This document shows positions 39,369-42,374 of a DNA stretch of 61,869 nt, in pieces. Positions within the stretch are counted from its first letter, which is position 1. Every line of letters starts with the position of its first letter. Location of the stretch: contig JAADIO010000006.1 in the NCBI GenBank assembly GCA_013151235.1, positions 1-61,869 on the forward strand, in the 5' to 3' direction. Source of the DNA: Deltaproteobacteria bacterium (GTDB lineage: Bacteria; CG2-30-53-67). Below the pieces are notes generated by a model, which worked only from the letters and a program-made list of their open reading frames with translations, made no database searches and had not been told where the DNA came from. The position numbers and the translations under genes are program-made.

Positions 39369-39583
39369 GACGGTCCCTCCTTTTCCTTCGCTTTTCCCTC
39401 TACCCGGACCCGGCAGGCCTGCTCATAAAAACGGTAAGGTACTGAGGGAGTACTCTACATGATTTTTCGGTGAATGAAAAGGGTGAATGGCAGGTGTGCG
39501 GATCGGGAAAATACGATTGTCATTTTTGATTTTTTTCCTAAAGTATTCCCGATTCCCGCCGATAAGGGGTTCAAATGCTCCTG

Positions 39584-39668
39584 GAGAAAGGCAAACTATC
39601 CGAAAGGGTAGGACGCAAAGCCACCTGCCGTAAGCTAAGGAAGACACGGTCGAGGGGTTGCCCGAAAG
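39584..39668 (+). promoter_or_regulatory. Cyclic di-GMP-I (GEMM) riboswitch
   Basis: AAAGGCAAACTATCCGAAAGGGTAGGACGCAAAGCC...TAAG...GGTCGAGGGGTTGCCCGA matches the GEMM pattern GGCAAAC-stem-GAAA-stem-GGACGCAAAGCC. Candidate promoter TTGTCA (39517)-N16-TAAAGT upstream. Confidence 0.93.
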
Positions 39669-39690
39669 GGAATACTGAAAAGTATTAATC

Positions 39691-39725
39691 AAAGCGTCCA
39701 CACCTTCGGGTTGGACGCTTTTTTT
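39691..39725 (+). terminator. Rho-independent terminator (riboswitch expression platform)
   Basis: aaagcgtcca-caccttcgggt-tggacgcttt followed by a T-tract. Confidence 0.85.
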
Positions 39726-39920
39726 GTTGTCCTCCCGAGAGATGCCGTCACGAAGGGCTCGCTTGAGCCTGACGGCATCTCTCCCTCCTCATTTCTTCAG
39801 AACCAACAATTCAGACCTAATGACGAACAAATAAGATCAGGATCAGGATTCCATGATGCAGCATCGGAGGATTCGGACGGGGCGAATGAGGAAAACTACG
39901 ATGATCAGGAAAAAAATTGC

Positions 39921-41273
39921 TTATTCCGAAAGGGGGTGTTGACCCATCTTGCCGAGAATCTTTGCCGCCTCTACGACGACCCGGTTGTCATTATCCTTCA
40001 GGGCTTTCATCAGGAGAGGGTGCAGACGAGCCTGATCGCTCACACTGTGGAGAGAAAGGACGGTCCGGAGACGAACATCGGGATCCTGATCATCCAGAGA
40101 GCGGAGGATGGAATCGAGATCATCGGCGAGCGGCCCCTGATCCAGAAGGCCGAAGAAATTCATCCCGTCGATCTCACTCAGATCAAGAGAAGGTCGGGCC
40201 TGGCGAACCTTCTCCGCCAACCCTTGCCCTTCGATAGAGGCCTGCGAAAGGAGGTTGACCACCCGGTCGGGGAAATTCATCTTCCCGATCATGCTGGAAA
40301 GCCGTGTCGGTCGCCCCTCTTCGAGTTCATAAATCCCGTTGTAGATAGCTGCACCCTTCGTCATCGTCTTGATGGAACTGTTCAGCTTTTCAAACATCTC
40401 CGCCGAACTGGCCTGGAGTACACTCCGGGGTGCGTAGAGGATTACGGCGATGACCGCTGCCGTCGTATAATCATAACCGGCCGCAAACAGGTCGCCCCCC
40501 TTCCAGATCTCTTTCAGCTGTTCCATCAGAAATCCGTCGCTGATCGGACCGGAGAGATTGAAGCTCCTGGAGCCGTAGATCATCAATCCCCGGGAAGAGA
40601 AGACCTTCCGAAAATCCTCACTGTCGAAACTCCGGAGACTCCGGATCTTGTAGGCATGGTCGGCACAGTTGAATTCGTCAAAGTTTTTAACGATTCGTTC
40701 GTTCGCCCGGGTGTAGTAATCGGCGATACTCACGCCGGGGAAAAGATCGAGAATCTTCTGATTGTCGATGAGGATGACACTGTTCAGGTTCTGCCGAAGA
40801 AGGGTATTGACCGCCTGGATGGCATTGACCTTGGTCAAGCTGCTTTCGCTCTCCGACGGCAGAGTCACCATCACGGAAGTCGGCACATTCAGCGGACGGA
40901 GGATCTCCGCCAGAGTCGGCAGGTTACTTCCCGTCCCGCCGCCCATCCCGGCAACAAGGATAAAAAGATCGACCGACTCCGCAGGCCCCTTCAAGGTACT
41001 CAGGATCCGGTCCCGGTTGCTAAGCAGGCTCTCCTTGCCAAGATCCAGGTCCCGGCCGGCACCGCTGCGCCCGTTGAGACCGACATGGAGACGGTGTTCC
41101 CGCGGCACTTCCTCCAGACTTTTCAGATCGGAAAAGGAGGTATTCAGGGCACAGGCCTGATACCCTTTCCGGGCAAACTCGGCGGCCAGGTTCCCGCCGC
41201 ACTGCCCGAGTCCCACCACCCCGATCTTCAACCGTTTTCTGAAATCATGAATCTTTGTATCGGAAGGTTTCAT
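39921..41273 (-). CDS. Divergent tubulin/FtsZ-superfamily GTPase with C-terminal HEAT repeat(s)
   Basis: GVVGLGQCGGNLA (T1), GAGRDLDLG (T3), AGMGGGTGS (T4 signature), VTLP, LIDNQKI, SFDSEDFRKV (T7-like); C-terminal DQDPDVRL...KDNDNRVVVEAAKILGK. Start at ATG 41273; the ORF extends to 41297. Confidence 0.88.
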   Translation of the reverse strand: MKPSDTKIHDFRKRLKIGVVGLGQCGGNLAAEFARKGYQACALNTSFSDLKSLEEVPREHRLHVGLNGRSGAGRDLDLGKESLLSNRDRILSTLKGPAESVDLFILVAGMGGGTGSNLPTLAEILRPLNVPTSVMVTLPSESESSLTKVNAIQAVNTLLRQNLNSVILIDNQKILDLFPGVSIADYYTRANERIVKNFDEFNCADHAYKIRSLRSFDSEDFRKVFSSRGLMIYGSRSFNLSGPISDGFLMEQLKEIWKGGDLFAAGYDYTTAAVIAVILYAPRSVLQASSAEMFEKLNSSIKTMTKGAAIYNGIYELEEGRPTRLSSMIGKMNFPDRVVNLLSQASIEGQGLAEKVRQARPSLDLSEIDGMNFFGLLDQGPLADDLDSILRSLDDQDPDVRLRTVLSLHSVSDQARLHPLLMKALKDNDNRVVVEAAKILGKMGQHPLSE

Positions 41274-41582
41274 GCCGCCGCCCCACCCTTCTGCCAATAA
41301 TGAATTTTTCGTAATCCTATCAAATCATCAAGAACTTTGTCAAGAAAAGCCGCCCTTTTCCCAGTTCCTTGTTGAAATGCTCCACATTCCCACGCGGGTT
41401 GTGCCATTGCAACAGAACCCATCGCAAAAAGATGATAAGCCTATTGGATGGATCCCTCAAATCCGTACCTCCCAAAGCCGGCAAATGAAAATTTCCGGAA
41501 AAATATGTAATACAATTGACATATTCTAATTCTGTGATATTGTGAATGCCGTTAATCTCACATTGAAATGAAGGAGGAGATC

Positions 41583-42374
41583 ATGAAAAACAAAGTCAAA
41601 GGACTGTTGATTCTTGTCCTGTTTTTGTGTTGCGCTTCACTGGCCTTTGCCGAAACTTATGGTGTCAAGAAGCGGGCGCCCCGCCCGGAGGAATACGGTA
41701 ACTGCATAATCAACAACTTCTCCGAACAGAACAAGATGGCTCCGGTCGTCTTCAAACACTGGTTGCATCGGGCGAAGTATACCTGTCGTCTTTGTCATGT
41801 TGATCTTGGCTTCGCCATGCAGACAGGGGGAACCGGAATCCGGGAAAAAGATATCCGCAGGGGCCTTTACTGCGGCGTGTGCCACAATGGAAAGATCGCC
41901 TTTCGCTGGGAAGAGCGAACACCTTTCGGGAAACTGCAGAAGAACTGCGATCGATGTCACTCCTATGGAAAAGATGTAAAGTTCAAGTACGATTTTTACA
42001 AATTCACCAAAGAATGGCCGAAGGCACGATTCGGAAACCGGGTCGACTGGCTGAAGGCGGAAGAGATGGGATTGATCAAGCTGCAGGATGCCATCAAAGG
42101 AGTCACCATCAAGCGTCGTCCCCTCAAAATTCCTCTCAACACCGAGATTGAAGCAAAGGTACCCGAGATGCCGGACATCATCTTTTCTCACAAGAAGCAT
42201 GCCGTCTGGAATGGCTGTGAACTCTGCCATCCCGATATCTTCGGAATCAAGAACGGAGCCACCAAATTCACCATGCAGGATATCTTTAACGGCAAATACT
42301 GTGGAGCCTGTCATGGGAAGGTCTCGTTCATGACCCTGGACTGCCAGCTTTGTCACTCAAAATCCATTAACTGA
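41583..42374 (+). CDS. Periplasmic hexaheme cytochrome c (two c7-type triheme domains)
   Basis: Signal peptide; CRLCH, CGVCH, CDRCH, CELCH, CGACH, CQLCH; F.H..H motifs. Confidence 0.9.
   Translation: MKNKVKGLLILVLFLCCASLAFAETYGVKKRAPRPEEYGNCIINNFSEQNKMAPVVFKHWLHRAKYTCRLCHVDLGFAMQTGGTGIREKDIRRGLYCGVCHNGKIAFRWEERTPFGKLQKNCDRCHSYGKDVKFKYDFYKFTKEWPKARFGNRVDWLKAEEMGLIKLQDAIKGVTIKRRPLKIPLNTEIEAKVPEMPDIIFSHKKHAVWNGCELCHPDIFGIKNGATKFTMQDIFNGKYCGACHGKVSFMTLDCQLCHSKSIN

Follow-up and report, generated by a model that had tools for sequence, protein, structure and literature searches.

The DNA analysed here, termed the window, is a stretch of 61,869 nucleotides (nt) from a Deltaproteobacteria bacterium (contig JAADIO010000006.1). 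Around position 39,500 its plus strand carries a riboswitch aptamer of the c-di-GMP-I (GEMM-I) class, the sensors of cyclic di-GMP (c-di-GMP), followed by an intrinsic terminator (T1) and a second strong hairpin (hairpin 2). No credible plus-strand gene was found in the next 1.84 kb in either the list of open reading frames (ORFs) or a Pfam search, and a tubulin-like gene on the opposite strand runs towards the unit. A sequence-only reading of the window had described these parts, and the aptamer, the strong terminator, the second hairpin, the missing sense gene and the convergent tubulin homologue were all recovered here. The locus is a well-documented orphan riboswitch and not a new mechanism. 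Its distinctive features are an ORF-less unit that is conserved across two genera, an invariant second hairpin and descent from a normal leader. The features of the locus are listed in Table 1.

Table 1. Features of the riboswitch unit and of the genes around it.
Feature	Position	Strand	Remarks
Promoter-like site	39517-39544	+	TTGTCA-N16-TAAAGT; sigma-70-like, 9/12 matches, weak alone; T-rich stretch upstream
5' leader, 30 nt	39551-39580	+	Invariant TTCCC (39553-39557) and CCGATAA (39559-39565)
c-di-GMP-I (GEMM-I) aptamer	39581-39666	+	cmscan; G39590, A39617 and C39661 at positions aligned with Vc2 G20, A47 and C92
Linker hairpin	39671-39686	+	AATACT-GAAA-AGTATT, from folding
Intrinsic terminator T1	39691-39725	+	13-pair stem with one bulge, TTCG loop, 7 T
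Pyrimidine box 1	39729-39736	+	GTCCTCCC; invariant in 4/4 genomes
Hairpin 2, 47 nt	39737-39783	+	Invariant 13-14-bp base, 5-nt bulge on 5' side, covarying 5-6-bp apical stem
Pyrimidine box 2	39784-39790	+	CCTCCTC; invariant through CCTCCT
Tubulin/FtsZ-like GTPase gene, 458 amino acids	39921-41297	-	Pfam Tubulin, TubZ-like_C and HEAT (GTPase, TubZ-like C domain, HEAT repeats)
HAD / P-type-ATPase-like fragment, 159 amino acids	38889-39368	-	Divergent upstream neighbour; not conserved beside the unit in relatives
Multihaem cytochrome c7-like gene	41568-42374	+	Signal peptide; next plus-strand gene, divergent from the tubulin-like gene
Further tubulin-like gene loci	L009 4001-5896; L006 3-1858		GTPase, TubZ-like C domain and C-terminal HEAT, then SLOG gene

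A cmscan search of the whole window assigned the aptamer to the c-di-GMP-I clan of Rfam (E-value: 3.2e-13). The match to RF01051 (39580-39665) is full length, covering model positions 1-87 of 87, and scores 65.3 bits (E-value: 1.5e-12) against a gathering cut-off of 35 bits. RF03167, the c-di-GMP-I-GGC variant, scores 65.4 bits (gathering cut-off 59 bits), which is 0.1 bit higher, and clan competition gives this variant label to the window and to the aptamers of three relatives introduced below. The two models are separated by a column of the binding core (GACGC-G-AA in the RF03167 consensus, GACGC-A-AA in the RF01051 consensus). The window and the three relatives have GACGCAAAG, with A in the column of Vc2 A47, and the RF03167 match line is blank at that place. 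Identity with the GGC variant was rejected because the aptamer lacks the variant's G in this column, the meaning of "GGC" being taken from the two consensus lines only. With A in the A47 column and canonical G, A and C contacts, the label is, as the alignment reads, a tie-break artefact. A 0.1-bit difference can thus place the "c-di-GMP-I-GGC" label on RNAs without the variant's defining base.

In Vc2, G20 and C92 are the pairing partners of the two c-di-GMP guanines, and A47 touches the ligand (PMC5888326, PMC11218506). The bases of the window that align with these contacts, where the transfer of Vc2 numbering onto the model columns is our own reading of the alignment, are the canonical ones, and the aptamer is for that reason a canonical c-di-GMP sensor as judged by its sequence. 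Riboswitches for c-AMP-GMP (cyclic AMP-GMP; GEMM-Ib) have A at the G20 position. This change is not present at G39590, which is invariant in the four genomes that carry the unit, so c-AMP-GMP sensing, raised in the sequence-only reading, is unlikely. Helix P1a ends in a GAAA loop (CCGAAAGG); the apex of P1b is short and fits the model poorly (posterior 0.3-0.6), and no clear 11-nt receptor was seen. The window's genome has 13 GGDEF matches, by which the cell should make its own c-di-GMP, and five GEMM-I aptamers, the window copy and four others.

The promoter-like site upstream of the aptamer is present as had been described, although it is weak. Four such sites were found in a 2.8-kb region, compared with 1.7 +/- 1.3 in shuffled sequences. 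Its -10 box, TAAAGT, is kept in three of the four genomes, and CTAAAGT recurs before paralogous GEMM-I leaders. In the 5' leader, TTCCC can pair with GGGAA (39668-39672) to form an outer helix, which RNAalifold predicts with weak covariation. The 9-bp repeat agtattccc/gggaatact (39542-39550 and 39668-39676), previously taken to enclose the aptamer, does exist, but it is not conserved among the four genomes. Its 5' arm coincides in part with the proposed -10 box and the start region and would not be transcribed from that promoter, so the repeat helix and the promoter are mutually exclusive as predicted elements. A linker hairpin follows the aptamer. The same place in the relative G001 holds a different self-complementary sequence (GATCAA...TTGATC), and G005 has no clear equivalent.

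T1 consists of AAAGCGTCCACACC-TTCG-GGTTGGACGCTTT followed by seven T, with a predicted folding energy of -18.1 kcal/mol (RNAfold). It was not listed by a simple terminator scan, probably owing to its bulged C. A match to Phe_leader in this region is weak (28.6 bits against a cut-off of 55) and was rejected, as it merely reflects T1. Eleven nucleotides, ending in pyrimidine box 1, separate T1 from hairpin 2, the arms of which are GAGAGATGCCGTCA and TGACGGCATCTCTC (-33.0 kcal/mol, RNAfold). Directly after the stem comes CCCTCCTC; beyond this the sequence turns T-rich in the window, G001 and G002, and no T-run is present in G005. A U-run begins 8 nt past the hairpin in G001 and G002, and none is found in the window or G005. 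By the criterion for rho-independent terminators hairpin 2 is not one, as no U-run directly follows the stem in any of the four genomes. The 250-nt unit as a whole folds far better than its shuffles (z = -6.6), and good folding is also seen for its minus strand (z = -4.1). In the window, the minimum-energy structure of the unit further joins UUUCUUCAG (39792-39800), just past hairpin 2, to the aptamer's 5' strand (39581-39589, CUGGAGAAA). On our reading, G001 can form a corresponding pairing between GGAAAAAGG and UCUUUUUCC, which occupy the same positions, and G005 has nothing comparable. This pairing could be a long-range anti-aptamer or a chance A/U-rich match.

The region 39500-39930 was compared by blastn with 60 related genomes and the window's own genome. 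Eleven of the 61 genomes match, and only three of the matches extend past the aptamer core. The conserved block spans 39523-39794 and is 89% identical in G002 and 86% in G001, both of the window's genus, and 74% in G005, which belongs to another genus; nothing aligns beyond it. Conservation ends a few bases after hairpin 2, and the adjoining spacer no longer aligns. The tubulin-like gene is 85% identical to that of G002 and 74.7% to that of G005 at the DNA level, so by this measure conservation of the unit is similar to that of the protein gene next to it. Both flanks differ among the four genomes. Upstream of the unit lies the HAD-like gene in the window, a gene for a DUF6812 protein in G002 and G001, and a transfer RNA gene in G005. 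Downstream, the window has the tubulin-like gene directly, whereas G002 and G005 have a SLOG cluster-4 / TIGR00725 gene and then the tubulin-like gene; in G001 a dispersed repeat follows and then the contig ends.

T1 and hairpin 2 together offer 31 base pairs, or 124 cells, in the four-sequence alignment. Standard pairs occupy 123 of these cells, and eight of the 31 pairs are altered on both sides. None of 500 column shuffles reached these figures, and pairing falls to 36-52% when the partner strand is slid by 1-3 columns. Taken alone, T1 (12 pairs counted) has two pairs with changes on both sides and 97.9% of its cells paired. The apical helix of hairpin 2 is altered on both sides in five of six pairs and is paired in 100% of cells. 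The 13-pair base of hairpin 2 and its unpaired flanks are invariant, and the 5-nt bulge is on the same side in all four sequences. G-U pairs in hairpin 2 arise only on the riboswitch strand, and its folding energies on the plus and minus strands are -37.0 and -33.0 in G002, -34.0 and -25.8 in G001, equal in the window, and -31.6 and -33.0 in G005. These values are at most suggestive of a function on the riboswitch strand.

Coding explanations for the block fared poorly. The sequence-only reading had proposed a 30-amino-acid peptide starting at ATG 39742, but this frame has 30, 7, 3 and 3 codons in the window, G002, G001 and G005, respectively, and the proposal was discarded. A 29-amino-acid minus-strand ORF behind AGGAGG-N5-ATG was also rejected, since its frame shifts between genomes, and no small ORF is conserved in the unit among the four genomes. 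A 529-amino-acid plus-strand ORF that starts inside T1 (39711-41300) has no Pfam match and shadows the tubulin-like gene on the minus strand. The next plus-strand gene encodes the multihaem cytochrome c7-like protein. Long-range sense control of this gene was considered and rejected, because the region beyond the tubulin-like gene is not syntenic in G005. The cytochrome gene has a promoter-like site of its own (TTGACA-N16-TATTGT).

The origin of the unit can be traced within the same genome (G000). The other four GEMM-I copies of G000 are each followed by a terminator and then by a sense ORF within 105-200 nt, encoding secreted proteins, a cytochrome-like protein and a response regulator, which makes the window copy the exception. 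One of them, on contig C53 (locus L002), precedes an ORF for a 179-amino-acid secreted cytochrome-like protein, and its leader aligns with the unit well beyond the aptamer. Common to both are the CTAAAGT box, the CCGAT motif of the 5' leader, the aptamer, the AAGTATTA linker, a terminator with a T-run that GTCCTC (the homologue of pyrimidine box 1) follows, the position of a small hairpin and a pyrimidine box. In C53 this last box, which pyrimidine box 2 matches, is of the anti-Shine-Dalgarno kind: it pairs with the purine-rich Shine-Dalgarno sequence GGGAGGGAGGGAAG upstream of the ATG. The same design is found in the orthologous leaders of G004, G001 and G008. The unit differs from the C53 leader in its hairpin, which is 47 nt long where that of C53 is small, and in having neither a Shine-Dalgarno sequence nor an ORF. 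It looks like a paralogue of a C53-type leader that ends directly after the pyrimidine box, and the ribosome-binding site and ORF look to have been lost from it or never to have been there.

Two of the remaining copies have features of their own. On contig C66 (2702-2900) the aptamer, at 1501-1577 of locus L003, is followed first by three tandem near-identical terminator-like hairpins (GCCGAACC...GGTTCGGC with a T-run) and then, about 195 nt downstream of the aptamer, by an ATG in frame with a 982-amino-acid ORF. The copy at 5248-5330 of contig C44 (L004) precedes a gene for an 860-amino-acid secreted protein; in a wider cmscan alignment it spans 145 nt, with a 62-nt insertion at the P1b apex. 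The 2.6-Mb genome G000 has CsrA, and no match to Hfq was found in it.

The conserved block 39523-39794 may be transcribed on its own, as a unit of about 270 nt whose product is a non-coding RNA gated by c-di-GMP. This reading, held tentatively and at somewhat less than even confidence, follows from the conservation of the block across two genera while both of its flanks changed. The proposed model is as follows. The unit would have arisen when a riboswitch leader like that of the small cytochrome gene on C53 was copied, the copy retaining the promoter, the leader motif, the aptamer, the terminator and the pyrimidine (anti-Shine-Dalgarno-like) box. When c-di-GMP is bound, the aptamer would lock the GGGUAGGACGC segment, T1 would form and a short RNA of about 175 nt would be released. 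At low c-di-GMP, this segment would instead pair with the 5' arm of T1 (GCGUCCACACC) and allow readthrough. The longer RNA, which carries hairpin 2 and the CCUCC boxes, would be the active product. Its targets in trans could be purine-rich ribosome-binding sites, for example the one in the parent cytochrome leader; alternatively, transcription could simply run on into the convergent operon.

As to the direction of the switch, it is somewhat more likely than not that c-di-GMP promotes termination (an OFF switch). When folding is limited to the transcript upstream of the T1 3' arm, GGACGC (39611-39616) pairs with GCGUC(C/U) of the T1 5' arm (39694-39699) in the minimum-energy structure of all four sequences, and in the window this antiterminator pairing extends to the whole of the segment at 39606-39616. 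GGACGC is part of the core that binds the ligand, so ligand binding would release the T1 5' arm from it and favour termination.

Several points weigh against a gated non-coding RNA of this kind. The start, ends and readthrough of the transcript are predictions from the sequence. Only four sequences of the unit are available, three of them from one genus. The antiterminator pairing involves invariant bases and so gains no support from covariation; by our estimate, an arm of 11 nt and an aptamer of 86 nt would share a complement of 6 nt by accident with a probability of about 0.1. The evidence on the strand of hairpin 2 amounts to about three independent wobble events, and in all three resolved genomes hairpin 2 is the first strong hairpin that follows the convergent operon's stop codon, so it could be conserved in part for a role on the other strand. 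As to targets, a blastn-short search of the unit against its own genome gave only matches of 12-14 nt at chance level (E-values of at least 1.9), and the pyrimidine/purine complementarity to ribosome-binding sites is of low complexity. When up to one mismatch was allowed, AGGAGGGAGAGATG was found at 13 places, one of them in the unit itself; they lie at assorted gene starts and point to no single target. Duplexes predicted by RNAduplex between the hairpin 2 region and the 5' regions of the tubulin and SLOG genes were like those of shuffled sequences (z about -0.1 to -1.7). In a separate comparison, hairpin 2 was considered as a widespread element. The pattern GAGAGATGCCG-N15-30-CGGCATCTCTC occurs in 18 metagenome stretches, but these have unrelated flanks and none of the 18 contains an Rfam family at gathering score; the idea was rejected, and by their sequence context these matches are chance hairpins. 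In a sample of the phylum, the pattern occurs in four of 14 genomes, the window's own among them.

A more specific form of the model, in which the RNA is a trans regulator derived from a duplicated 5' leader, is unlikely. Here the two invariant CCUCC boxes of the RNA made by readthrough at low c-di-GMP would mask purine-rich ribosome-binding sites, including that of the parent cytochrome leader. The predicted duplex with this C53 site has an energy of -24.8 kcal/mol, compared with -26.1 for C53's own cis box. If this were true, a single copied aptamer would extend c-di-GMP control to distant genes, possibly including the convergent tubulin-SLOG operon. The origin of the unit can be followed back to a normal leader, and its conserved candidate output domain (hairpin 2 and the pyrimidine boxes) is open to mutation.

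The leading alternative, possible but doubtful, is an antisense-acting riboswitch, as the sequence-only reading had proposed. Readthrough of T1 would send RNA polymerase into the convergent tubulin/SLOG operon, and collision or a duplex at the 3' end would lower its expression. The stop of the tubulin-like gene lies 255 nt from the end of the aptamer, within the 500-nt criterion of a survey that counts 152 antisense and 2,554 sense c-di-GMP riboswitches and reports this family as the most enriched in antisense orientation (PMC9943018). The convergent layout recurs in all three genomes where it can be viewed (the window, G002 and G005), with no sense gene directly downstream in any of them; the check that the sequence-only reading had set for itself came out in its favour. 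The convergent geometry stands, but tubulin as the specific target is not supported: G002 and G005 present the SLOG gene to the unit, and the window, which lacks the SLOG gene, has tubulin in that position for this reason alone. G001 keeps the unit with a dispersed repeat after it and no tubulin paralogue found, the Pfam Tubulin search of this genome giving FtsZ alone and a protein search no match; its assembly is 99% complete in 250 contigs. Two strong hairpins stand between aptamer and target, and synteny among close relatives is expected from descent alone. Nor does the operon need a riboswitch. Five other genomes of the family have the tubulin gene (G003, G004, G006, G007 and G008), and an Rfam scan of the tubulin locus in all of these but G007 found a riboswitch at none of the four; the loci L007, L008, L010 and L011 were assigned to G006, G008, G003 and G004 through identical hit statistics. 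No blastn match to the unit was found in G004 or G007. Antisense action on the convergent operon is possible, with nothing specific in its support.

The convergent genes have several features of their own. The 458-amino-acid tubulin-like protein matches FtsZ only weakly, far under the cut-off, and the gene is a paralogue distinct from true FtsZ, which is encoded on another contig. Its orthologues are 74-91% identical. The SLOG cluster-4 gene (PF18306, TIGR00725) follows the tubulin gene in six genomes of the family (G002, G003, G004, G005, G006 and G007); no orthologue was found in the window's genome or in G001, where only paralogues of 31-32% identity were detected. The dispersed repeat that follows the unit in G001 (L014, 107-301) contains a 150-165-nt piece that is 87-90% identical to sequences on G000 contigs C56 and C10, and some 30 nt at its core recur on at least 10 further G000 contigs. 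The repeat probably caused the contig break in G001.

It is quite unlikely that the unit produces only a stand-alone short RNA. T1 would then be effectively constitutive, the RNA would buffer or store c-di-GMP as a sponge, and hairpin 2 would belong to the 3' end of the convergent messenger RNA. Such a role has a precedent in merRNA, which has no conserved downstream ORF and for which c-di-GMP storage has been proposed (PMC3627812). T1 is strong, the candidate antiterminator is short, and hairpin 2 begins 10 to about 150 nt past the stop codon of the convergent operon. A sponge would however have to be expressed at very high levels, and the match to a promoter is weak. The wobble pairs of hairpin 2 favour the riboswitch strand, and the minus strand lacks a proper U-run after either hairpin.

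Very unlikely is the view that T1 and hairpin 2 form a two-way stop between convergent transcription units, the riboswitch being an inherited leader copy without an output of its own. The two hairpins do lie back to back between such units, and the stable fold of the minus strand agrees with an insulator. The aptamer, the leader motif and the -10 box, however, are conserved like the hairpins across two genera, and a pure stop signal would not need them. The unit also resembles a leader cut before its ribosome-binding site and ORF. That it is a neutral remnant of a gene lost too recently for decay to show is highly improbable, however: another genus keeps the ORF-less block at 74% identity, close to the figure for the protein gene, and shows compensatory changes in it, while the spacer no longer aligns.

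Cd1 of Clostridioides difficile, which lies before flgB, is a c-di-GMP-I OFF switch in which c-di-GMP promotes termination. It shares the direction proposed for the unit and differs in controlling a flagellar operon in sense. Riboswitches are also said to act in antisense. An S-box riboswitch downstream of the ubiG operon of Clostridium acetobutylicum reportedly does so, and Listeria reportedly has an antisense RNA under B12 control. Like such riboswitches, the unit has its own promoter-like site and is convergent with a gene whose 3' end is less than 500 nt away. It differs from them in that the gene faced changes among relatives and that G001 keeps the unit with no tubulin gene found.

The Bc1 c-di-GMP-I riboswitch of Bacillus thuringiensis has a dual terminator, of which T2 is a typical rho-independent one, and precedes the mcpE ORF (PMC11218506). 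As in Bc1 as described there, the GEMM-I aptamer of the unit precedes a long expression platform with two hairpins close together; the unit differs from Bc1 in that hairpin 2 has no adjacent U-run and no ORF follows. The C53 leader is similar to Bc1 in another respect, as its combination of a terminator with masking of the Shine-Dalgarno sequence recalls the dual control of transcription and translation described for Bc1 (PMC11218506).

Gene-less c-di-GMP riboswitch RNAs are uncommon but already known. The merRNA of Bdellovibrio bacteriovorus is 445 nt long, massively expressed according to RNA sequencing, and proposed to be a store of c-di-GMP (PMC3627812). Both it, as presented in that source, and the unit place a c-di-GMP-I riboswitch in a small RNA that has no conserved downstream ORF and is kept only in a narrow lineage. 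Unlike merRNA, the unit is only about 175-250 nt long and has a conserved second hairpin with invariant pyrimidine flanks; here, as in the comparison with antisense-acting riboswitches, its transcript is also a predicted one. If it is expressed and responds to its ligand, the unit would be the second, independently evolved c-di-GMP riboswitch gene for a non-coding RNA after merRNA.

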